Below, piece by piece: positions 27,766 to 39,100 of a DNA stretch of 64,000 nt (position 1 is the stretch's first letter; every line of letters begins with the position of its first letter). This stretch comes from Candidatus Latescibacterota bacterium (GTDB lineage: Bacteria; Latescibacterota; UBA2968; UBA8231). Made by a program: the position numbers and the translations under genes. The notes under the pieces were generated by a model. The model saw only the letters and a program-made list of their open reading frames with translations, ran no database searches and was not told the DNA's origin. The stretch is from NCBI GenBank assembly GCA_965206595.1, contig OZ242214.1, positions 6,208,001 through 6,272,000 of the forward strand, in the 5' to 3' direction.

Positions 27766-28794
27766 TTAGCCGGAGCTTTCGAGTCCGAGCTCTTCGGAGT
27801 AGGCGAAAAGGGCGGGGGTGCCGCCTGTGTGCACGAACAACAGGGTGTGTTCGCGGGACCACCAGCCGCGCCCGATGTGGGCGATCAGCCCGGCCATGGT
27901 CTTTCCCGTATACGAGGGGTCGAGCAGGAGCCCTTCGGCGCGGGCGACCTGCTTGATGGCAGCGCGACTTTCTTCGGTGACGACCCCGTAGTCCGGTCCG
28001 ACGAACTCGGCGTAGCTCTCGAAGTCCTCCGCCTCGAACTTGAGGTCGAGGTCGAGAATGCGCGCCTGTTCGGCGGCCAGGGCGGCCATCCTCCCCGCTG
28101 CCTCGGCATCGTCGCGCGGGGCGGAACTGATTCCGACGATGCGCAGGCCGAGTCCGAGCGCCTTGCTGGCGACCACCATGCCGGTGTGGGTGTGGGCCCC
28201 GGAGCAGAGGTAGACGGCGTCGGGCCGGATTTTTCTGCTCTGCAACTGTTCCCACAGCTCGAGGAAGCCGTCGACGTAAGCGATGCCGCGATAAATGAAA
28301 CCGTCCGTGCTGGTGTTGAAGGGGCGGTGGCCCGCGGCCCGCAGCTCTTCCATGCGCGTGGCGATCGCCGCGGTCTGGGAGTCCGGCGGTTCCAGGAAAA
28401 CCTCGGCCCCGAAGAGACGCGATAGCAGCAGATTGCCCTGGCTGTGGGCATGGGCGTCCCGGCGGCCGACGACGACGGAACGCAGCCCGAGCCTGGCGGC
28501 GACGGCCGCGGTCTGGCGCGACTGGTTCGACTGCGCCGCGGCCCCGTGCAGCAGCACGTCGCAGCCCTGTTCCACCGCCTGCGCCAGCGAGTACTCGAAC
28601 TCCCTGATCTTGTTTCCCCCCATGGCCAGGCCGGTGAGGTCCTCCCGCTTGACCAACAGGCGGGGCCCGAGCTCGGCGCTCAGCCGCGGCAACGGCTCGA
28701 GCGGGGTAGGGAGGATCGCGAGGTTCAAGCGGGGCAGGCGCCCCAGGCGCTCGCGGATTTCTGACGCCGTGAAGGTCAAGGGGGTTCGTCCCAA
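27766..28794 (-). CDS. PLP-dependent D-cysteine desulfhydrase / cysteate sulfo-lyase family
   Basis: PTPL, KREDLTG..GGNKIR, QSN, LLDPSYTGK, FVHTGG. Confidence 0.85.
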   Translation of the reverse strand: MGRTPLTFTASEIRERLGRLPRLNLAILPTPLEPLPRLSAELGPRLLVKREDLTGLAMGGNKIREFEYSLAQAVEQGCDVLLHGAAAQSNQSRQTAAVAARLGLRSVVVGRRDAHAHSQGNLLLSRLFGAEVFLEPPDSQTAAIATRMEELRAAGHRPFNTSTDGFIYRGIAYVDGFLELWEQLQSRKIRPDAVYLCSGAHTHTGMVVASKALGLGLRIVGISSAPRDDAEAAGRMAALAAEQARILDLDLKFEAEDFESYAEFVGPDYGVVTEESRAAIKQVARAEGLLLDPSYTGKTMAGLIAHIGRGWWSREHTLLFVHTGGTPALFAYSEELGLESSG

Positions 28795-29034
28795 GCTGCG
28801 GAGAGGGTATTAGTTTAGAAGATAGGTTCGGGCCGAGCAGGGAGCCATCGCCGCCCGTCCGCACGACTTTAGATAAATTCAATGCAGCAAACAAGTTGTC
28901 GAATTCAGGAGGCGTCCTTAGGTTAAACGGATGTAACGTTTCCCGCCGCTTGCTTTACAGTTCGGCCTCTTCTCGCTGCCTTCCTCCCCCACCGCGAGAC
29001 CCAGGCGCCGGACTGAAACCGACTCCACGGCGAC

Positions 29035-31326
29035 ATGGACCTGGTAGAGCCGATTCCCCCCGAACTCGAGGGGCACCTGCGCAAAAAGCTGCGACCCGGG
29101 GAGCTGCTGATGGTGTTGCTGTCGTCGGACATCTCGCAGCAGGGCCGCTTCGACAGCTCCTGGCTGGCGATGACGGACGAGCGCCTAATGGTGCTGCGCT
29201 CGAACGGCGCCGGCATGGAGGAGCTGGAGGAGGTCCCCCTCGCCGACATCGAGAAGGTTCGCACCAGGAGCTACGTCGGCAACGGCACTCTGGTCGTCGA
29301 CCTGCCGGGGGGCAGCCGCGAGATCGTGCGTTTCTCCCAGGGAGCGTTCTACAAGTTCTCCGCGGTCCCACAGGTCGTCGAGGCAGCCCTCCTGTATCCG
29401 GCCGCCGAGGAAACCGCAAGCGAGGACGCCTCTCCCATACGCCGCGTCGAGTACTGCCGGACATGCGGCCGCGCCCTGCGTTCGGGCTCGACGGTATGCC
29501 CGAACTGCATTCGCAAGACCGAGACCTTCTGGCGGCTGCTCTCGTACATCCGCCCGTACAAACGGATCGCCGCCACCGGGTTCCTGCTGACCGTCACCGT
29601 CACCGCCATCAGCTTGCTGCCGCCGCTCCTGAACGAGAAGCTGATAGACGAGGTTCTCACCCCGGCCATACACGAGTACACCAGCCTCGAGGAAAGCGGC
29701 GCCTCGCTCGAGCACTGGAGCCCTCCCGCCGAAGCGGTGACGCTGCTGGGTTGGATCGTCCTATGCCTGCTGGGAATCCACCTCGGCCGCACCCTGCTCA
29801 ACAGCCTGCGCAGCTACAGTCTCGGCTGGCTCGGGCAGCGCGTGGTGTACGACCTGCAGACGGAGATCTTCGAGTGCCTGCAGTTCATGTCGCTGAGCTT
29901 TTACAGCCGCATGAGCACCGGCCGGGTGATGAACCGCGTCACCGGGGATACCGACCGCATGCGCCAGTTCATCACGCGCGGCTTTCAGGACATGGTGATC
30001 TCCGGCCTCACCGTCATCGGGATCGGCGCGGTACTGCTCTACAAGAACTGGGAGCTGGCCCTGCTCGCCCTGGTGCCGACCTCGATGATCGCGATAGGGA
30101 CCATCCTCTACACCCGGCGCGTGCACTGGGTCTACCACACGATCTGGCGGCGTGTCGCCACGCTCAACGCCCACCTCGCCGACACCATTCCCGGTGTCAA
30201 GGTGGTCAAGGCGTTCGCCCAGGAAGACAGGGAGCGCAAGCGCTTCGACCGGCGCAACGACCAGCTCGTCGAGGCGCGCATGGCGTCGGTCAGGATGCGC
30301 TCCCTCTTCCTGCCCGGAATCGCCTTCTTCACTTCGGTGGGATCGGTGGTTCTCTGGTGGTTCGGCGGCCATCGCGTCCTCAATGCGACGCTGACCCTCG
30401 GGGAGCTGCAGGCGTTCATCTCCTACATGATGATGTTCTATTCTCCGGTGGGAACCCTCTGCACCCTTTCCGACGACCTCGAGTCGGCCGCCACCTCGGC
30501 GGAACGTGTATTCGAGATCCTCGACACCGAACCGGATATCGTCGACGCCCCGGACGCCATCGACCCCGGCGTCATCGCCGGCCGCGTCGAGTTTCGCGAC
30601 GTCAGCTTCACCTACGACGGCTTCGCGCGCATCCTCGACCGCGTCTCCTTCGCGGCCGAACCCGGGGAGATGATCGGCATCGTGGGACCGAGCGGTGCCG
30701 GCAAGTCGACGCTAGTCAACCTCGTCTCGCGGTTCTACGACGCCACCGACGGCGCCGTCCTGATCGACGGCATCCCGGTCACCGGGATGAAGCAGCAGCG
30801 GCTGCGCGCCCAGGTCGGCGTGGTGCTGCAGGAGCCGTTGCTGTTCCAGGGCACCATCGCCGAGAACATCGCCTACGGCTGCCCCCAAGCGGAGCCGGAG
30901 GAGGTGATCGCCGCCGCGAGAGCGGCGAACGCGCACCAGTTCATCATGAATTTTCCCGACGGCTACGAAACCGAGGTGGGGGAGCGCGGGGGGCGGCTGT
31001 CGGGCGGCGAGCGCCAGCGGATCTCCATCGCCCGGGCGCTGATCGGCGACCCGCGCATCCTGATCCTCGACGAGGCGACCAGCTCCGTCGACACCGAAAC
31101 GGAGTACGAGATCCAGGAGGCGCTGGAGAGACTGATCGCCGACCGCACCACCTTTGCGATCGCCCACCGGTTGTCGACCCTCAAGAACGCCGACCGCCTG
31201 CTGGTGCTGGAGCGCGGCAGGGTAGCCGAAGTCGGCACCCACGCCGAGCTGCTGGGGCGCGAGGACGGGGTCTACCGCAGGCTCGTCGACATGCAGTCGG
31301 AACTCGCCAGGGTGAGAGCCCTGTAG
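29035..31326 (+). CDS. ABC exporter (TMD+NBD) with N-terminal PH-like domain and CxxC-x10-CxxC zinc ribbon
   Basis: CRTC...CPNC; TMD; GPSGAGKS, LSGGERQR, ILDEATS, IAHRLST. Confidence 0.9.
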   Translation: MDLVEPIPPELEGHLRKKLRPGELLMVLLSSDISQQGRFDSSWLAMTDERLMVLRSNGAGMEELEEVPLADIEKVRTRSYVGNGTLVVDLPGGSREIVRFSQGAFYKFSAVPQVVEAALLYPAAEETASEDASPIRRVEYCRTCGRALRSGSTVCPNCIRKTETFWRLLSYIRPYKRIAATGFLLTVTVTAISLLPPLLNEKLIDEVLTPAIHEYTSLEESGASLEHWSPPAEAVTLLGWIVLCLLGIHLGRTLLNSLRSYSLGWLGQRVVYDLQTEIFECLQFMSLSFYSRMSTGRVMNRVTGDTDRMRQFITRGFQDMVISGLTVIGIGAVLLYKNWELALLALVPTSMIAIGTILYTRRVHWVYHTIWRRVATLNAHLADTIPGVKVVKAFAQEDRERKRFDRRNDQLVEARMASVRMRSLFLPGIAFFTSVGSVVLWWFGGHRVLNATLTLGELQAFISYMMMFYSPVGTLCTLSDDLESAATSAERVFEILDTEPDIVDAPDAIDPGVIAGRVEFRDVSFTYDGFARILDRVSFAAEPGEMIGIVGPSGAGKSTLVNLVSRFYDATDGAVLIDGIPVTGMKQQRLRAQVGVVLQEPLLFQGTIAENIAYGCPQAEPEEVIAAARAANAHQFIMNFPDGYETEVGERGGRLSGGERQRISIARALIGDPRILILDEATSSVDTETEYEIQEALERLIADRTTFAIAHRLSTLKNADRLLVLERGRVAEVGTHAELLGREDGVYRRLVDMQSELARVRAL

Positions 31327-31336
31327 GAGAGATGGC

Positions 31337-31831
31337 ATGACCGGACACCAAACTGGCGGCTCCATGCTGGATGAGAAAGAGGTGACGCTGGCGCGCAACG
31401 CCGCGGGACAGCTCTGCCTGTCGGCAGCGGGAAAATCGTTCGCGGACATCGGCGTGCGGCGCGCCTTTCCACTTGAATTCCCTTTCCGCTACATCTCGTT
31501 CCTCGACGGCGAGGGGACGGAAATCGGGATGATCCGCGATCTGGAGATGCTGGAACCGGACAGCCGGGAGGTGCTGAGAGAGGCGCTGCACCGCATCTAC
31601 TTCCTCCCGGTGGTCGAGGCCATCCCCCATATCCGGGAGGAGTACGGCGTCATCCTGGCGGACCTGGAAACCTCCAGCGGCCCGCGGCGGATCGAGGTCC
31701 GCGGCTACCGGCGAAACGTCCGGCCCCTGTCGCGCGGCCGCGCCCTCATCGAGGACGTCGACGGCAACCGCTACGAGCTGCGCGACTGGTCGCGGCTGCC
31801 GAAACGGACCCGCGAGATGTTTGGTCTGTAG
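31337..31831 (+). CDS. DUF1854 family protein
   Basis: RRAFPL...YISFLD..G.EIG; IYFLP; LIEDVDGNRY. Typical partner of this ABC type. Confidence 0.8.
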   Translation: MTGHQTGGSMLDEKEVTLARNAAGQLCLSAAGKSFADIGVRRAFPLEFPFRYISFLDGEGTEIGMIRDLEMLEPDSREVLREALHRIYFLPVVEAIPHIREEYGVILADLETSSGPRRIEVRGYRRNVRPLSRGRALIEDVDGNRYELRDWSRLPKRTREMFGL

Positions 31832-31887
31832 ATGAACGTCCGGCCCGCGGCCGGCGTCAGAGGTTCTTCCTGGAGGGCAGCTCCGAC

Positions 31888-32706
31888 TCAGCTCCCGCCG
31901 GCGAAGAAGCGGCGCATCTTCTCCATGCCGATGCGCACCGTTTCCGCCGGGTCCCGCTCCCACCACTCCCGGTTGAACAGCTCGAGCGAGACGTACCCCG
32001 CGTAGCCGGCGGCGATGGCCTGCCGTTCGATTTCCCGCAGCTGCCCGGCGCCGTCTCCGGGCATTACGCGGTCGGCGTCCCCCTGCTGCGGCAGCGGCGT
32101 CCCCGAGGGGACGTCGTTCCAGTGCCAGATGGCGACCCGGTCCCCCGGGACTTGGGCGATCTCCGCGACCGAGCCGCCCCCGCGCAGGATATGGAAGGGG
32201 TCCATCACCACGCGGGCCTCGGGATGGTCGGCGGCGCGGGCGATCTTCCAGGCCTGCGTGATAGTGTGGACCGAGCCGGCGAACCCGAGGAACTCCATCG
32301 CCGGCCATACCCCGAACCCGCTTCCGAGCTCGATAAGCTCGCGGTACTGCTCGCCGGCCCCGTCGAGGTCGCACCGTTCCTGCGGCGGCGAGGCGACGAT
32401 GCGCCGGGAACCGATGGCCGCAGCCTGCTCCATGCGCCTCCCTGCTTCGGCCAGGGCCGCGGTGTGCTCCTCTCCGCGGGAACCGAGCCAGCCGTGAACG
32501 GCGATGACCCCGGGGACCTCGAGGCCCCTGTCCTCCAGCGCCCTGCGAATGTCGGCGAGCGCACCGCCGGCCCGCAGGAAGGCGTCGATATCGTCGCTCC
32601 ACAGCTCGATGGCGCGGAAGCCGGCCTCGGAAGCCAGGCGAATCTTGTCGAGCAGGGGAACGGGCTGGATCGTGCTGCTGTTGAGGCAGTACTGGAAACA
32701 CGGCAT
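31888..32706 (-). CDS. Sugar-phosphate isomerase/epimerase (xylose-isomerase-like TIM barrel)
   Basis: AGFRAIELW, AMEFLG, MDPFH, HWND, DRVMPGDG, SLELF. Confidence 0.85.
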   Translation of the reverse strand: MPCFQYCLNSSTIQPVPLLDKIRLASEAGFRAIELWSDDIDAFLRAGGALADIRRALEDRGLEVPGVIAVHGWLGSRGEEHTAALAEAGRRMEQAAAIGSRRIVASPPQERCDLDGAGEQYRELIELGSGFGVWPAMEFLGFAGSVHTITQAWKIARAADHPEARVVMDPFHILRGGGSVAEIAQVPGDRVAIWHWNDVPSGTPLPQQGDADRVMPGDGAGQLREIERQAIAAGYAGYVSLELFNREWWERDPAETVRIGMEKMRRFFAGGS

Positions 32707-32742
32707 GCGTGCTCTCCGGCGGATGAAACCGACTTCGAGCTG

Positions 32743-33765
32743 TCAGGCGACGTGCAGGTAGTCGCGGCCCTCGGCAAGGGCCATGCGCTGCAGCTCGCGG
32801 CCAATCTCGACCCGGGCACCCCGCGAGGCAACCGCGGACAGCAGCATCGGGTTGCGGCAGCGGCGCCAGCGCCCGGCGAACTCCGCGGCCGAGACGATGT
32901 CGACCCGGCGCAGGGTGCTGCCGATCTTGGCCGGGGCGATGTCGATGAAGGCGGCGAGGGGGCATCCCCCCCTGGCCAGGTGCTTCGAAAGGCGCCTCCC
33001 GGTCTTTCCGGCGCCCCAGATGAATACCGCGTCGCGTCCCTTGAGCGGACCGGCGAGCAGGTAGTGGGCTTTGGCGCGGAGGAAGTTCTCCACCGAGTAA
33101 CGGCTGTCGGTGCGGGTGAGGCGGCCGGGGTGCTCGCGCCAGCGCAGCAGCACCTCGGGGACCTTGGCGAAGCGAACCCCCGCGGCGGCGAGCCGCAGCC
33201 ACAGATCGTAGTCTTCCGCCCAGCCGCGGTCCTCGTATCCCCCCGCCTCCTCCAGGACGCTTCGGCGAACGCAGGCGCTGGGGTGGGTGATCGGACTCTC
33301 GATGAAGAGCTCCCTGAGGATCTCCTCGTGGGTTCGCAGCCGGTTCTGCCATCCGAGGTACACCCGCATGCCCTCGCCCAGCTGCGCCCGCGGAAAGCCC
33401 TCGACGAGACAGCCAACCACCCCGAGCCCGGGGTCGCGTTCCAGCATTTCCACCTGTCTCTCCAGGCGTTCCGGGAGGGAGAGGTCGTCGGCATCCATGC
33501 GGGCGACACAGGGAGCGCGGCAGTACCGCAGGCCGGCGTTGAGTGCGGCGATCAGGCCGGCGCGGCCCAGGGTCACGGGGCGGACGCGACGGTCGCGGGC
33601 GGCGGCCTCCCCCAAGATGCGGCTGCTTCCATCTTCGGAGCCGTCGTCGACGGCGACGATCTCGAGGTCTCGAAGGGTCTGTTCGCAGATGCTCCGCAGC
33701 GCCTCGGCAAGGGTCGCTGCGGCGTTGTGAACCGGCATAAGGACGGAAACTCGTGGCAGGGACAT
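32743..33765 (-). CDS. GT2 glycosyltransferase with C-terminal Rossmann-like domain (B3GNTL1/QTGAL-like)
   Basis: VSVLMPVHNA, DDGS, RMDADD, EDYDLW; C-terminal IWGAGKTGRRL, AFIDIAPAKI, EGRDYLHVA. Start ATG 33765 or 33777. Confidence 0.85.
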   Translation of the reverse strand: MSLPRVSVLMPVHNAAATLAEALRSICEQTLRDLEIVAVDDGSEDGSSRILGEAAARDRRVRPVTLGRAGLIAALNAGLRYCRAPCVARMDADDLSLPERLERQVEMLERDPGLGVVGCLVEGFPRAQLGEGMRVYLGWQNRLRTHEEILRELFIESPITHPSACVRRSVLEEAGGYEDRGWAEDYDLWLRLAAAGVRFAKVPEVLLRWREHPGRLTRTDSRYSVENFLRAKAHYLLAGPLKGRDAVFIWGAGKTGRRLSKHLARGGCPLAAFIDIAPAKIGSTLRRVDIVSAAEFAGRWRRCRNPMLLSAVASRGARVEIGRELQRMALAEGRDYLHVA

Positions 33766-33983
33766 GGTGGTATTCATCCCCAGGCGGCTCTGGTTGCAGG
33801 TGGCCGGAGGAACTTCTGCTTTCGAAGTTGAACCGGGGAAGGCAACTGGGACCGACCGGGATCCAGGGGAAGAGCGAACAGGCGATCCGGTCCGAGCGGA
33901 CGGTTGCGATTCTCCAAAGGATGCGCCGTCAGCACCTATATTGAGTGGCTCGGTATACGCAAAGGAAACCAGCAAGGGCCTCC

Positions 33984-34745
33984 ATGATCCACCTGAAATC
34001 CGCCAGGGAAATCGAGAAGATACGCGCCAGCTGCCGCATCGCGGCCGAGGCGATGATGCAAGTCCGGGAGGCTGTCGCTCCGGGAGTGAGCACTGGCGAG
34101 CTCGACGTTGTGGCCGCCGCGTACATCCGCAGCCGGGGGGCGGTTGCCAGCGCCAAGGGGTACCGCGGCTACCCGGCCAGTATCTGCGTCTCGATCAACG
34201 AGGTCATCGTTCACGGGATTCCCGGCCCGCGCCGGCTCGCCGAAGGGGATATCGTCGCCGTCGACATCGCGGTCAGGAAGGACGGCTTCCACGGCGACAT
34301 GAACGTTTCCTTCGCGGTCGGCGAGACCTCCGGGGAGGCCCGGGACCTGCTGGCGACGACCCGCGAAGGAATGGAGATCGGCCTGCGCGCCTGCGTCGCC
34401 GGCAAGCGGCTCGGGGACGCAGGCCACGCGATCCAGGAGTTCGTCGAAGGCAGGGGGTACTCGATCGTGCGGGAATACTGCGGCCACGGCATCGGGCGGG
34501 AGTTCCACGAGGAGCCGCAACTGCTGCATTTCGGCACCCCGGACACGGGCCGGCGGCTGCAACCCGGAGTGGTGTTCACCGTGGAGCCGATGGTCAACGC
34601 CGGCGGGCCGGAGGTGCGCCTCCTCGACGACGACTGGACCGCGGTTACCCTGGACGGAAGCCTCTCCGCCCAGTTCGAGCACACCGTGGCGGTGACCGCG
34701 GACGGCCCCGACGTGCTTTCGAGATTCGACGACCTGCCGTTCTGA
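33984..34745 (+). CDS. map: Methionine aminopeptidase type I
   Basis: CVSINEVIVHGIP, GDIVAVD, GHGIG..FHEEP, VEPMVN, SAQFEHTV. Confidence 0.96.
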   Translation: MIHLKSAREIEKIRASCRIAAEAMMQVREAVAPGVSTGELDVVAAAYIRSRGAVASAKGYRGYPASICVSINEVIVHGIPGPRRLAEGDIVAVDIAVRKDGFHGDMNVSFAVGETSGEARDLLATTREGMEIGLRACVAGKRLGDAGHAIQEFVEGRGYSIVREYCGHGIGREFHEEPQLLHFGTPDTGRRLQPGVVFTVEPMVNAGGPEVRLLDDDWTAVTLDGSLSAQFEHTVAVTADGPDVLSRFDDLPF

Positions 34746-34929
34746 ACCGGGTTTGCCGAATTCCGGGCGGCTCCTAGATTTTGTCGATGCAATCTGTTAC
34801 CGGAGTTCCTGGCATCCTGCGGCGTTCGCCTGAGGAGGACGCGGCCCCGGGCTGCAGGAGCCATGCCGGCCGAGTCCCGCCCCGGCCTCGACTGCCGGGA
34901 CGGCACCCAAGCGAGAAAAGGAAACCGAG

Positions 34930-35208
34930 ATGGCCCAGAATTTACGGTCCCGCAACGAAGAGGAAGCGACCGATTTTTCGACCTTCGATTCGGGAAGCAC
35001 ACGCGAGCTGGAAGTAGAGGACGTCTGCTGCATCACCGGCGAGGAGGTGCCTGCCAGCTTCTGCCGGTTTCCCGACTACCGGCGGGGAACGATGATGGTG
35101 ATGTCGAAGAAGCATGCGATCGAGCATCTGCGAAAAGGAACCACCATCGAGAAGTTCAAGGAGGTCCTTGTCGAACGGCACGGGCAGGAGGTCCTCGACG
35201 AATACTGA
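34930..35208 (+). CDS. Small hypothetical protein (92 aa)
   Basis: AAGGA RBS; coding-like composition; fills the gap between map and the convergent tlpA-like gene. Confidence 0.65.
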   Translation: MAQNLRSRNEEEATDFSTFDSGSTRELEVEDVCCITGEEVPASFCRFPDYRRGTMMVMSKKHAIEHLRKGTTIEKFKEVLVERHGQEVLDEY

Positions 35209-35323
35209 TCGAGGCATTTCCTGACGGCGCCTTCATCCGGCGTGATCGGAACGGGCAAGCAGGCCCCGTCTCCGGTCTCGCTGGCCCCCCTTTCCACCTG
35301 ATTTTCCGCCGCGTCGGCGGCGG

Positions 35324-35914
35324 TCAGACCCTGTCCAGCAACATCTGAATATCCTCCCCCAAGGCCGAGAATGGGGAGAAGCGCCCCGATCTGTCGCGGG
35401 GAACGCCGCGGTGCACGGCCCGGGTTTCGCCGTTCTGGTCGATGACGATCGTCAGCGGTATGGAGACCATCGGGGAGGAATCGTAGTTGCGCACCCAACG
35501 CATGTCCGCGTCGTAGTAGATCGGGTAGTTGATTCCGTACTCCCCCGTGAAGCGGCGCAGCCTGGCATCGATCTGCTCGGGCGTGCCGTGTTCGCTCATC
35601 GCGATGCCGACGATGGCGACGTCGTCCTCGGCGAACCCCTGGCGCAGCTTGACGAGGTCGGGTATTTCGATGCGACAGGGCCCGCACCAGGTCGCCCAGA
35701 AATTGATGACGAGCACCTTGCCCATGTGGGCTTCCGGCCTGAAGTCGGCGGCGTCGCCGACGGAGCCGGGGACGTTGGCAGGGGCCTGCTCGGAGGTGTC
35801 GGCGCCGCTGCAGCCGAATAGGCCCGGGAGGGCGGCCAGAAGGGGCGGGAGGAGGTGTTTCAGGATGATTCGACGTGCTGATCGCTGCATGGAAGCGAAT
35901 ATAGAGGCGGCCAA
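35324..35914 (-). CDS. TlpA/ResA-like thiol-disulfide oxidoreductase lipoprotein
   Basis: GKVLVINFWATWCGPCRIEIP; IP..IVIDQNG; lipobox LFGC. Confidence 0.9.
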   Translation of the reverse strand: MAASIFASMQRSARRIILKHLLPPLLAALPGLFGCSGADTSEQAPANVPGSVGDAADFRPEAHMGKVLVINFWATWCGPCRIEIPDLVKLRQGFAEDDVAIVGIAMSEHGTPEQIDARLRRFTGEYGINYPIYYDADMRWVRNYDSSPMVSIPLTIVIDQNGETRAVHRGVPRDRSGRFSPFSALGEDIQMLLDRV

Positions 35915-36106
35915 TGGGGGCTGCCACTGTCTGAGGGGCGACAGTCGGGGGGCAAGTCAATCCCATGTGAAGGAAGTCAACGACCTTTAGCGGATCCGAA
36001 AAATCTGCCGGGCGCAGGCAGCCGTACCGATGGCAACGCCGTGGAAAGCGCCACTTTGGCTCACATCAAGGCCAGCCTGTCCAAGTAAGCCAGCCTGTTA
36101 AACCCC

Positions 36107-39100
36107 TCAGGCTCGCGGTGCAGCCCCCCTGGTGTTCGGCGCTTCGGTGAGCCATGGTTTCTCCGGCTCGATCAGCGTTCCCACCGCCTTCAGCAGCTCG
36201 TCCGACGGATCGACCCGCAACGACCGCGAGCGCACCACCGCGTCCTTGCCTCCCCCGTTCCTCAGGTGGATCAGCAGCTCGCAGTTCCCGGTGTGCTGGT
36301 CGACAAGCCGGCGCAGGCGCTGCAGCAGGTCCGAGCTGCTTTCGTCGTCGAACTTGAGGACGAAGTTCACCGCCTTCGTCAGTTTCTGCCGCGCCTCGTC
36401 GAGGGGGATCAGCGACTCGGCCTGGAGGCCGAGGTTGCCGTTGCGGCGCGACACGCGGCCTTCGGCGAGCACCGCCCGCCCCTGCTCGATCAGGGGGCGG
36501 AAAGTGGTGTAGGCGTCGGAGAAGAAGACGACATCGATCTTGCCGCCCTGGTCTTCGATGGTCGCGAAGGCGATGCTCTGGCCGCGGCGGTCAGTCGACG
36601 TGCTGATCCGGGTGATGAGCCCGCCGATGCGCACGGAAGCCCCGTCGGCGTAGCGTTCGAGCTCCCCCACAGGGGTGGCGAAATAGCGCAGGTCCCTGGC
36701 GTGCTGGTTGAGCGGGTGGCTGGAGACGTAAAACCCCAGCAGCTCCTGCTCGCGTTCGAGGCATTCCGACTGGCTCCACTCCGCCGTTTCCGGAAGCGAC
36801 GGCTTGTCGACCTGCGCAACCACCTCTTCGGCATCGTCGAAGAGGCTTCTCTGGCCGCGCAACTTCTGCTCGTTGGCGATCTGGGCGTTCCTCAGCACCA
36901 GATCGAGACCTTCCAGCATCTGGGCGCGGTGCGTTCCCTGGCGGTCGACGGCCCCGGCGGCGATCAGGCTCTCGATCACCCGCCTGTTGACCGCCTTGAG
37001 GTCGAGGCGCTGGCAGAGATCGAACAGGTCTGCGAAGGCCTCCCCGTCGGCCCTGGCCTCGACGATGGCCTGCGCCGCCCCTTCGCCGACGTTCTTGATT
37101 GCGGCGAGACCGAAGCGGATGCCCTCCGGGGTCGGTGTGAAGTTGACGGCGCTCTTGTCGACGTCGGGGGGCAGCACAGGCAGGTCCATGTTCCGGCACT
37201 CCTCCAGCAGCACGGTCAGGCGATCGGTGTTGGTGCGGTCCGTGGTCAGGCTCGCGGCCATGTACTCCCTGGGATAGTGGGCCTTGAGGTAGGCGTTCTT
37301 GTAGGCCACCTCGGAATAGCAGGCCGAGTGCGACTTGTTGAACCCGTACCCGGAAAACACCTCGATATCTTCCCACACCTTCCCGGCGACCTTCTGCGGC
37401 ACGCCGTTTCCCTGCGCCCCTTCGAGGAAGTCGTGGCGGTATTTCTCCATGACGTCGGCGAGCTTCTTGCCCATCGCCTTGCGGATGCCGTCGGCCTGGC
37501 CGAGGGTGAAGCCGGCCATGTCGCGGGCGATGCGCTGCACCTGCTCCTGGTAGGTGATGACCCCGTAGGTCTCCTCGAGTATCGGCTCGAGCAGCGGGTG
37601 GTCGTGCTCGACCGCCTGCTCCCCCTGTTTGCGGGCGATGAAGTCCGGGATGCGCTGCATCGGTCCGGGGCGGTAGAGCGCGTTCATGGCGATCACGTCC
37701 TCGATCTTGTCCGGCTTGAGCTGCACGAGGTACTCGCGCATGCCGGCGCTCTCGAACTGGAACACCCCGATGGTGTCGCCCCTGCTGAACAGGTCGAAGG
37801 TCTCCGCGTCGTCCCAGGGGATCGCCGAGAGGTCGAAGCCGGGCTCGTGCAGGCGGATCAGGCGCACCGCCTCGTCCCTCAGCGACAGCTCCTTGAGTCC
37901 GAGGATGTCCATCTTGAGCAGGCCGACCGACATGCAGGTCTCGCCGTCGAACTGGGTGGTGACCGTGCCGTCCTTGGGAGCGCGGTAGAGGGGCACGTAA
38001 TCGGTCAGCTCGGAGGGGGCGATGATGACGGCGCAGGCATGGACGGAGGCGTGGCGGGCCATGCCCTCGAGCTTGCGGGAATACTCGATCAGCCGGCCCT
38101 CCGCGCCCGGCGCCTCGGCGAGCTGCTGCAGCTCCGGGACCCGTTCGATGGCGCTGTCGAGGGTGATCTTGAGCTCGTTGGGGATCAGCTTGGCGATGCC
38201 GTCGACCTCCCCGAAGGGCATTCCGAGAACGCGGCCGACGTCGCGCACCACCGCCTTGGCTCCCATGGTCCCGAAGGTGATCACCTGCGAGACGTTGGCC
38301 TCGCCGTACTTCTCGACGATGTAGCGGACGACCCTGTCGCGGCCGGTATCGGCGAAGTCGATGTCGATGTCGGGCGGTTCGATGCGCTCGGGATTGAGGA
38401 AACGCTCGAACAGCAGGTCGAACTTCATCGGATCGGTGTCGGTGATCTCCAGGCAGTAGGAGACCAGGCTGCCGGAGGCAGAGCCGCGGCCGGGGCCGAC
38501 TGAGATCCCGCTCCTGCGGGCGAACTTGACGATGTCCCAGACGATGAGGAAGTAGCCGGCGAATCCCTCCTTGATCAGCAGGTCGAGCTCGTAATCGAGC
38601 CGTTTCTCCAGGCCGGGATCTGATTTGCCGTAGCGCCGCTCGAGCCCTTCCCGGGCGAGCCGGGTCAGGAAATCGCCGCTGCTCTCGTACCCTTCGGGAA
38701 TCGGGAAGTTCGGCATGTGGGATTCCCCGAAATCGAGCTCGAGGTCGCATTTGTCGGCGATCTCGACCGTCTTTTCCAAGGCGTCCGGCAGGTCGTTGAA
38801 CAGCTCCTGCATTTGCGCCGGGTTCTTCATGAACAGCCCGTCGGGGTAGCAGAGGCGGTTGTCGTCGTCGACGGTCTTGCCGGTCTGGATGCAGATCAGG
38901 GCGTCGTGGGCGTCGTGGTCGTCGGCGCGGAGGAAGTGGAAGTCGTTGGTCGCGACCAGGGGCACCCCCAGCTTCCGGTGCAGTTCGAGCAGGCCCTCGT
39001 TGACCTTGGCCTCGGCGGGGATGCCGTGGCGCTGGATCTCGAGGTAGTAGTCGTCACCGAAGTGGTCGGCGAACCAGCGCGCCGACTCTTCGGCCGCGGC

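Follow-up and report, generated by a model that had tools for sequence, protein, structure and literature searches.

A conserved bacterial GT2 glycosyltransferase family and its possible link to the queuosine-tRNA galactosyltransferase QTGAL/B3GNTL1

Can bacteria attach a sugar to the queuosine (Q) of their transfer RNA (tRNA)? The question is raised by a gene on the minus strand of a 64,000-nucleotide stretch of DNA from Candidatus Latescibacterota bacterium (assembly GCA_965206595.1, contig OZ242214.1, positions 6,208,001 to 6,272,000), the whole of which is referred to here as the window. The gene, called the GT gene below, encodes a glycosyltransferase (GT) of 340 amino acids (aa), P0001, which a preliminary description had likened along its full length to the animal queuosine-tRNA galactosyltransferase QTGAL (B3GNTL1). 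Sugar-modified queuosine has been described in animals, where the two enzymes responsible were not named until 2023, and the only bacterial hypermodification of Q known to us is glutamyl-Q. The four motifs quoted in the preliminary description were all found in the translation of P0001, in the order stated (Table 1). Human B3GNTL1 is presumed to be soluble and of similar length, with matching motifs and a collinear C-terminal half. Because of its fold, its motifs and a look-alike cluster named as B3GNTL1, P0001 is likely to be an inverting transferase of UDP (uridine diphosphate)-sugars that is related to QTGAL. It belongs to a real, large gene family that is uncharacterised. That bacterial Q-tRNA is sugar-modified is put forward as a plausible hypothesis and not as a finding.

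A complete GT2 enzyme with a basic C-terminal domain

The GT gene is real rather than a chance open reading frame (ORF), because a word-indexed protein search in which 8000 candidates were scored returned 3366 proteins at E<=0.001, and the best 120 of these matched over nearly the full length, with 56-92% identity over 96-100% of P0001. The minus-strand ORF spans 32743..33975 when read from the first TTG, and translation from the ATG at 33765 gives 340 aa followed by a TGA stop. An alternative ATG is present at 33777, four codons upstream. The start at 33765 was supported by the homologue alignments, which begin at residue 1-4.

For the N-terminal part of the protein, Pfam assigned residues 7-173 to Glycos_transf_2 (PF00535) with 117.1 bits against a cut-off of 23.3 (E 1e-33). 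Among the best 25 of 29 NCBIfam matches, none of the named GT2 equivalogs (EpsE, TuaG, MftF, PgaC and others) reached its cut-off, the highest score being that of EpsE with 99.1 bits against 450, and the GT families in this set matched within the GT2 domain only, no further than residue 228. When 131 full-length relatives were aligned, P11, R89, D91, D93, D94, W139 and D185 were invariant. The acceptor-side half of the domain (residues ~120-225) was unusually conserved, including W139, N141, E156, P158, H161, P162, R167 and the segments EDYDLWLR and RLTRTD. This region can be written as G..Y..W.N...E.P..HP...R......GGY....EDYDLWLR...G..(F)AK.....L..WR....R(L)(T)R.(D).RY, with brackets around residues below the 90% level. 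By analogy with what is generally known of GT2 enzymes, D185 is the likely position of the catalytic base.

An AlphaFold2 model built with the alignment of the 131 relatives had a predicted local distance difference test score (pLDDT) of 97.8 and a predicted template modelling score of 0.93. It consisted of a GT-A domain followed by a linker helix and then by a small alpha/beta domain (residues ~243-340). In VIA comparisons, the GT-A part matched K4CP with a Z-score of 24.5 (root-mean-square deviation 2.6, 225 aligned) and both WrtF and SpsA with a Z-score of 23.9. Fold searches with the whole model by Foldseek and VIA-wide returned GT-A cores, together with 3nkl for the C-terminal domain, and no chain listed by these searches joined both domains. 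A sequence search of the PDB found GT2 cores only (K4CP, PcManGT, ArnC and others), with no chain named QTGAL or B3GNTL1. The highest hydropathy over 19 residues was 1.09, so no membrane helix is expected and the protein should be soluble, with no signal peptide. From its sequence and model, P0001 has a complete GT2/GT-A catalytic domain.

The C-terminal domain had been described as unusual. An extra conserved domain is indeed present, with a glycine-rich loop (wGaGxxGrr), but its fold is a common one, namely the small Rossmann module of the CoA_binding/PglD_N/WbaP type. A profile made from 33 C-terminal domains matched the PDB entry 3nkl (E 1.4e-8), which is the N-terminal domain of a UDP-sugar dehydrogenase (CapD/WbpM type), as well as VioB (7e-6), WbaP (9e-3) and the NAD domains of Rex (5e-8). 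The Pfam family CoA_binding (PF02629) was recognised in 29 of the 33 family members with a best E of 1.8e-8, and below the cut-off in P0001 itself (E 0.05-0.29). When the domain was modelled alone (pLDDT 96.8), Z-scores of 12.6, 11.2, 10.7 and 10.1 were obtained for 3nkl, WbaP, 2g6t and Rex, respectively, and of 8.6-9.8 for CoA-binding and PglD-like domains (PglD-like N-acetyltransferases, 9.6 and 8.6). The distinctive feature of the domain is its basic charge, with a net value of +12 in P0001 and a family median of +7, and it was positive in 95% of the 131 sequences. The N-terminal domain is acidic in the same set (family median -5).

The family extends over many bacterial phyla. In an exhaustive search of representatives clustered at 50% identity, 3747 were found at E<=1e-30, and at least 589 loci encode a relative when one genome per species is counted. 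Names among the best 120 homologues were generic only, such as 'glycosyltransferase (involved in cell wall biosynthesis)', and the organism labels included Gemmatimonadota, Latescibacterota and Chloroflexi. The best 80 of the at least 589 loci were used for all locus comparisons. These were from Latescibacterota, Anaerolineales and other Chloroflexota, Gemmatimonadota, Thermoanaerobaculia and other Acidobacteriota, Verrucomicrobiota, Desulfuromonadales (including Citrifermentans bremense R1), Sorangium, Anaeromyxobacter, Chloroflexus, Planctomycetota, Armatimonadota and one gammaproteobacterium. Between genomes labelled Latescibacterota, Chloroflexota, Gemmatimonadota and Acidobacteriota, the full-length identity was 55-61%. 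A tree of 81 sequences, made by a quick maximum-likelihood method, was ordered mostly by phylum, with 18 label changes compared to 42.7 in shuffles. Such conservation across phyla would fit a universal conserved acceptor better than a glycan.

Within the window's phylum, a family-level match was present in 86 of 168 genomes, with one copy each; this number was reached from 93 genomes at E<=1e-40 by removing seven whose best match covered the GT2 core only (1e-41 to 1e-49). The distribution of the family is patchy. In a genome from the same taxonomic family as the window (G126:C30:47752-48276), the match covers positions 2-176 only and contains an in-frame TAA, possibly a decaying copy. Viral relatives were also considered and rejected, as the 80 best IMG/VR hits matched the GT2 core only, extending at most to residue ~268.

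Probable relationship to QTGAL, and the queuosine pathway

Look-alikes were sought with the Atlas, a language-model (embedding) search, using the family member P0082, which is 59% identical to P0001. Without filtering, every look-alike cluster listed consisted of bacterial GT2 proteins from the same family, with 219-243 of 256 features in common. A filtered run leaves out clusters carrying PF13641, that is, the family's own. The top of its 30 hits had a score of 0.98 with 203 of 256 features shared. This cluster of 55 members (511 aa) was 100% Eukaryota, with diatoms the commonest, and carried the automatic name 'putative UDP-GlcNAc:betaGal beta-1,3-N-acetylglucosaminyltransferase-l...', which we take to be the former protein name of B3GNTL1. 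The next clusters, with 171 and 163 features shared, were Bacillota GT2 proteins with a CoA_binding-type domain and phage GT2 proteins. The eukaryotic cluster ranks just below the family's own clusters and above every other GT2 cluster, which speaks for a specific relationship. The Bacillota look-alikes are 409 aa long with GT2 and C2185-like_N/CoA_binding-type domains, and the more distant look-alikes also included phage (Uroviricota) GT2 proteins in several clusters (415 aa, 256 aa).

No B3GNTL1 was present among the best 120 homologues or the best 150 representatives, which were proteins of bacterial type with a generic name or none. A 240-aa C-terminal query limited to lengths >420 aa gave 8 and 10 hits, none of them eukaryotic, and a cluster look-up of 10 candidates (30 cluster members) produced no eukaryotic name. 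A short-motif regular expression run over 271 proteins had one match, which was bacterial-looking. Homology with QTGAL/B3GNTL1 over the full length is considered quite probable.

The chemistry was also compared. B3GNTL1 is placed in family GT2 in Table 2 of PMC5902498, and QTGAL is described in passages of bioRxiv 10.64898/2026.06.28.735034 and PMC12518689 as using UDP-galactose to galactosylate Q in tRNA-Tyr at its homoallylic hydroxyl, giving a beta-glycoside. The formation of a beta-glycoside from a UDP-sugar suits an inverting GT2 enzyme, and the chemistry is therefore compatible.

The window's own genome, a single contig of 7.05 Mb that is 92.9% complete, was inspected for the queuosine pathway. 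Matches above the curated cut-offs were obtained for tgt (509 bits), queA (326 bits), queG (396 bits) and queC (167 bits). A second, sub-threshold queC paralogue was located at C1:6610664-6611269. The tRNA genes present include one each for Tyr(GTA), His(GTG) and Asp(GTC) and two for Asn(GTT). From this gene content the bacterium is predicted to make Q-tRNA, and the predicted substrate to be present; the absence of tgt, which the preliminary description had named as grounds for abandoning the idea, was not observed. For GluQRS, the best score in the own genome was 175.9 bits against a cut-off of 276.7, so the known bacterial enzyme of Q hypermodification seems to be missing there.

In other genomes carrying the GT gene, tgt was found in 35 of 35 from diverse phyla (5/5 plus 30/30). 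The window's phylum has tgt in 163 of 168 genomes and in 83 of the 86 carriers, and the three carriers in which tgt was not matched have a completeness of 86-89%. Among 301 sampled Chloroflexota genomes, each >=90% complete, tgt was present in 259 and a full-length GT gene in 14, all of them tgt-positive, while 0 of the 42 tgt-less genomes carried the GT gene; core-only matches were seen in two further genomes. Five genomes flagged as unpublished (G228, G360, G363, G456 and G465) were tgt-positive and GT-negative, and on their removal the counts become 254/296 for tgt and 14/296 for the GT gene. At a background of 86%, the chance expectation for 14 of 14 being tgt-positive is ~0.12, and the carriers are kin. 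Two tgt matches above the cut-off per genome were noted in G002, G179, G183, G184, G185 and G199 (Desulfuromonadales-type) and in many Chloroflexota.

The acceptor

The conservation of the family, its single-copy stand-alone genes and the lack of a membrane segment or glycan context point to a conserved cytoplasmic macromolecule or a nucleotide-like molecule as the acceptor. The basic C-terminal domain and fusions to TudS point in the same direction. In two relatives, P0185 (489 aa) and P0282 (463 aa), a TudS domain (PF04463) lies N-terminal to the complete GT2 and Rossmann module. The two proteins are 59% identical over 463 residues, covering both domains, and come from different sources with very different base composition. 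According to passages of PMC10611767, TudS enzymes desulfurise thiouracil and 4-thio-UMP (4-thiouridine monophosphate), and in passages of PMC11417400, RudS is described as TudS fused to DUF1722 that removes 4-thiouridine (s4U) from tRNA. Both sources raise the possibility that domains fused to TudS redirect it to tRNA, and the word 'glycosyl' has no occurrence in the main text of either. The fusion ties the GT module to modified-nucleotide or tRNA metabolism, and provides the best independent pointer to an acceptor of the nucleic-acid type.

Other fusion candidates were of a different kind. A single example, P0235 (624 aa), has a class I S-adenosylmethionine-methyltransferase domain (PF13649, residues 117-215) before the same GT module. 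P0190, P0230, P0287 and P0288 were rejected as fusions, since the extra sequence appears to be GC-rich upstream or out-of-frame DNA that was read through.

The preliminary description had also placed the gene outside any polysaccharide cluster, and this was upheld both in the window, where no glycan-synthesis gene flanks it, and in a wider set of loci. From 20 diverse loci, 127 ORFs were picked greedily; three loci (L060, L062 and L078) were dropped for long antisense artefact picks, as were outermost and dubious ORFs, which left 80 ORFs from 17 loci for a Pfam scan. A Pfam family was found for 51 of these and none for 29. No glycan-cluster GT, flippase, polymerase or exporter was present among the 80 flanking ORFs. 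The sugar-related neighbours were a class A penicillin-binding protein (L048), a GH77 protein (L045), a UDP-sugar-epimerase-like protein (L010) and a galactokinase-like kinase (L061), and NUDIX genes adjoin the GT gene in L056, L058 and L065. All-vs-all clustering of 2476 ORFs lying up to 5 kb from the GT gene across the 80 loci yielded no neighbour common to several phyla, the larger clusters being antisense ORFs of the GT gene or generic ABC (ATP-binding cassette) transporters.

P0001 is tentatively postulated to be a hexosyltransferase acting on Q at position 34 of tRNA (Q34); the acceptor is postulated along with the donor sugar and a tRNA-binding role of the C-terminal domain. The N-terminal domain would bind a UDP-hexose through the VDDGS and RMDADD motifs in a metal-dependent, inverting reaction, with the invariant D185 as catalytic base. 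The sugar would be passed to a hydroxyl of the queuosine cyclopentenediol at position 34 of one or more tRNAs with a GUN anticodon, while the anticodon arm may be gripped by the highly conserved acceptor-side half together with the Rossmann-like, basic C-terminal domain. In that case the enzyme would correspond in bacteria to animal QTGAL/B3GNTL1, and may be ancestral to it. A broader proposal, held with somewhat less confidence, is that many bacteria (Latescibacterota, Chloroflexota, Gemmatimonadota, Acidobacteriota, Myxococcota, Desulfuromonadales and others) glycosylate Q34 with this enzyme, that glycosyl-Q is bacterial in origin with animal QTGAL as a descendant, and that the TudS-fused forms are bifunctional tRNA-editing enzymes.

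Several observations weigh against Q34 as the acceptor. The link to B3GNTL1 comes from one embedding search, which gives neither an alignment nor an E-value, and is regarded as a lead. Acceptor specificity of GT2 enzymes can shift fast at ~30% identity, the level expected between the bacterial and animal proteins. The nearest solved relatives of the C-terminal domain bind nucleotides, nucleotide-sugars or dinucleotides, and we know of no RNA binding by them. No report of glycosylated Q in any bacterium was found in the literature searched. The suggested co-occurrence with tgt and que genes was consistent in that carriers are tgt-positive and the own genome has que genes, but tgt is nearly universal and co-occurrence therefore hardly discriminates. 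Co-occurrence with QTMAN-like genes, also suggested earlier, was not borne out: QTMAN_N (PF12038, DUF3524) was matched neither in the window's own genome nor in any of 168 genomes of the phylum, and the control too matched none (0/14 genomes). Two genera, g24 (0/15) and g15 (0/5), have tgt but no GT gene. No tRNA or que gene was a neighbour in any locus examined, and searches around the GT gene, in the window and in 8 related loci, detected no riboswitch of the preQ1 or any other class.

A first alternative is that P0001 is an ordinary cytoplasmic GT2 enzyme of envelope or small-molecule metabolism, acting on a lipid-linked glycan or glycolipid, or else on a compatible solute or cofactor. Its C-terminal module would then be regulatory or UDP-sugar-binding, and the likeness to B3GNTL1 would reflect descent without shared function. 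This is consistent with the cell wall names of the relatives and with the best NCBIfam matches (EpsE, TuaG and others), though these are far below their cut-offs. Modules of this kind are characteristic of glycan enzymes of the WbaP, CapD and PglD types, and the patchy distribution would fit an accessory envelope trait. The epimerase-like and galactokinase-like neighbours mentioned above, and a sugar-phosphate isomerase-like TIM-barrel gene 36 nt (nucleotides) downstream in the window, may be read in the same way. However, the protein has no transmembrane segment, no further GT of a glycan cluster and no Wzx, Wzy or export gene occurs in the 17 scanned loci, and no neighbour is shared across phyla. 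The cross-phylum identity (about 55-60%) is unusually high for glycan GT2 enzymes, the C-terminal domain is strongly basic, and the TudS fusions would be left unexplained. On balance this alternative is considered unlikely.

Under a second alternative, the enzyme is related to QTGAL but modifies another nucleotide-type molecule, such as another modified tRNA or RNA base, a free modified nucleoside or nucleotide, or a nucleotide-sugar, with the C-terminal domain binding the nucleotide part. The resemblance of that domain to holders of UDP-/TDP-sugars or NAD/CoA (PglD-like, VioB, WbaP, 3nkl and Rex) supports this, as does a structural neighbour at Z 21.7, AvpGT (9jn3/9jma), a GT2 enzyme that binds the nucleoside Ara-A. 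The high conservation across phyla would fit any universal nucleotide-like acceptor. The fusion partner TudS, as described in passages of PMC10611767, prefers free 4-thio-UMP. However, no candidate acceptor pathway lies beside the GT gene in any lineage examined, and the nearest look-alike outside the family is the cluster named as B3GNTL1, whose characterised member acts on Q in tRNA. This alternative is judged rather improbable. A conserved cytoplasmic protein as acceptor, for example a translation factor or ribosomal protein, would agree with the high conservation, the stand-alone gene in variable context and the divergent orientation to map in the window's lineage, but is very improbable, as no partner gene is conserved, the synteny with map is confined to close kin and no known protein-glycosylating GT2 enzyme was prominent among the sequence or fold matches.

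If Q34 is the acceptor, the family would bring a new tRNA modification to bacteria and provide an evolutionary origin for QTGAL, making glyco-Q a bacterial invention rather than an animal peculiarity. Tractable microbes (Geobacter-like bacteria, Sorangium and Chloroflexus) would become available for studying the effects of glyco-Q on decoding, which are still unclear in animals. If the acceptor is a different one, the family is still a widespread, very conserved and uncharacterised group of soluble GT2 enzymes, with a predicted structure fit for the design of experiments.

Layout of the locus and comparison with known systems

The coordinates of the GT gene, its domains and motifs, and the flanking features are given in Table 1.

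Table 1. Features of the GT gene and its surroundings, in window coordinates
Feature	Coordinates	Strand	Remarks
GT gene, 340-aa GT2 + Rossmann-like protein (P0001)	32743..33765	-	TGA stop included; homologues cover residues 1-340
GT-A (GT2) catalytic domain, residues 1-225	33091..33765	-	Pfam, AlphaFold2 model, fold matches, conservation
RMDADD, DxD-type metal/nucleotide-sugar motif	33484..33501	-	R89, D91, D93 and D94 invariant (131 sequences)
YLGWQNRL, residues 136-143	33337..33360	-	
EDYDLWLR, holds invariant D185	33193..33216	-	alignment of 131 sequences
C-terminal domain, residues 226-340: linker helix + small Rossmann-like (CoA_binding-type) domain	32746..33090	-	
IWGAGKTGRRL, residues 249-259	32989..33021	-	
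AFIDIAPAKI, residues 272-281	32923..32952	-	
LAEGRDYLHVA, residues 330-340	32746..32778	-	
Divergent intergenic region, GT gene/map	33766..33983	.	scanned for sigma-70-like promoter and Rfam elements
Xylose-isomerase-like TIM-barrel protein (PF01261)	31888..32706	-	begins 36 nt past the GT stop, same strand
ABC exporter (763 aa), then DUF1854 protein	29035..31831	+	4-base overlap
map, methionine aminopeptidase (Peptidase_M24)	33945..34745	+	start GTG 33945 or likelier ATG 33984; divergent, context only
92-aa ORF between map and redoxin gene	34930..35208	+	no Pfam family

The neighbours of the GT gene in the window are the genes for the TIM-barrel protein, the DUF1854 protein, the ABC exporter, map, a redoxin and dnaE. 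The preliminary description had pointed to the head-to-head position to the translation gene map. The divergent arrangement is present, but the argument is weakened, as map adjoins the GT gene in 12 of the 80 loci, all of them close kin of the window, and the synteny is thus lineage-local. The TIM-barrel gene is possibly co-transcribed with the GT gene; it is unlikely to be a general partner, because it is a neighbour in 6 of the 80 loci, again all close kin. No sigma-70-like promoter was detected in 31700-34100. Rfam gave no element at E<=1 in the window from 28000 to 37000 and none at the gathering score in 8 related loci.

The 92-aa ORF, which is kept at 54-76% identity in 12 of the 80 loci (all close kin), probably encodes a real small protein. 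The ABC exporter has an N-terminal extension of ~170 residues with a CxxC...CxxC stretch, and in 7 related loci relatives of both the exporter and the DUF1854 protein share one side of the GT gene, adjacent in 6.

Of the solved bacterial GT2 enzymes, K4CP chondroitin polymerase, SpsA, WrtF, TarS/TarP and heparosan synthase share the GT-A fold and the DxD motif with P0001. Solved bacterial GT2 enzymes matched it with Z-scores of 22-24.5 and 19-23% identity over ~220 residues. Unlike P0001, the named enzymes have no C-terminal Rossmann-like domain in such an arrangement; their matches are limited to residues 1-~240, and they act on glycan or teichoic-acid acceptors and belong to glycan gene clusters. 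The C-terminal module (residues 243-340) has its fold and glycine-rich loop in common with 3nkl, the WbaP domain, the N-terminal domains of PglD, VioB and PerB, and the NAD domain of Rex, but differs from them in lying C-terminal to a GT2 domain and in being strongly positive across the family. RudS and TudS are matched in the relatives P0185 and P0282, where TudS precedes the whole GT module, whereas the window's protein has no TudS domain.

With QTGAL, P0001 shares the GT2 family and probably the use of a UDP-sugar donor, and the cluster with the B3GNTL1-type name is the nearest outside look-alike of the bacterial family. QTGAL is an animal enzyme, whereas the window's bacterium makes Q de novo and no QTMAN partner was found in it. 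GluQRS (YadB) is unrelated in fold and chemistry, being an aminoacyl-tRNA-synthetase-like enzyme of glutamylation; what it would share with P0001 is the nucleoside, Q34, on which both would act after tgt, queA and queG.

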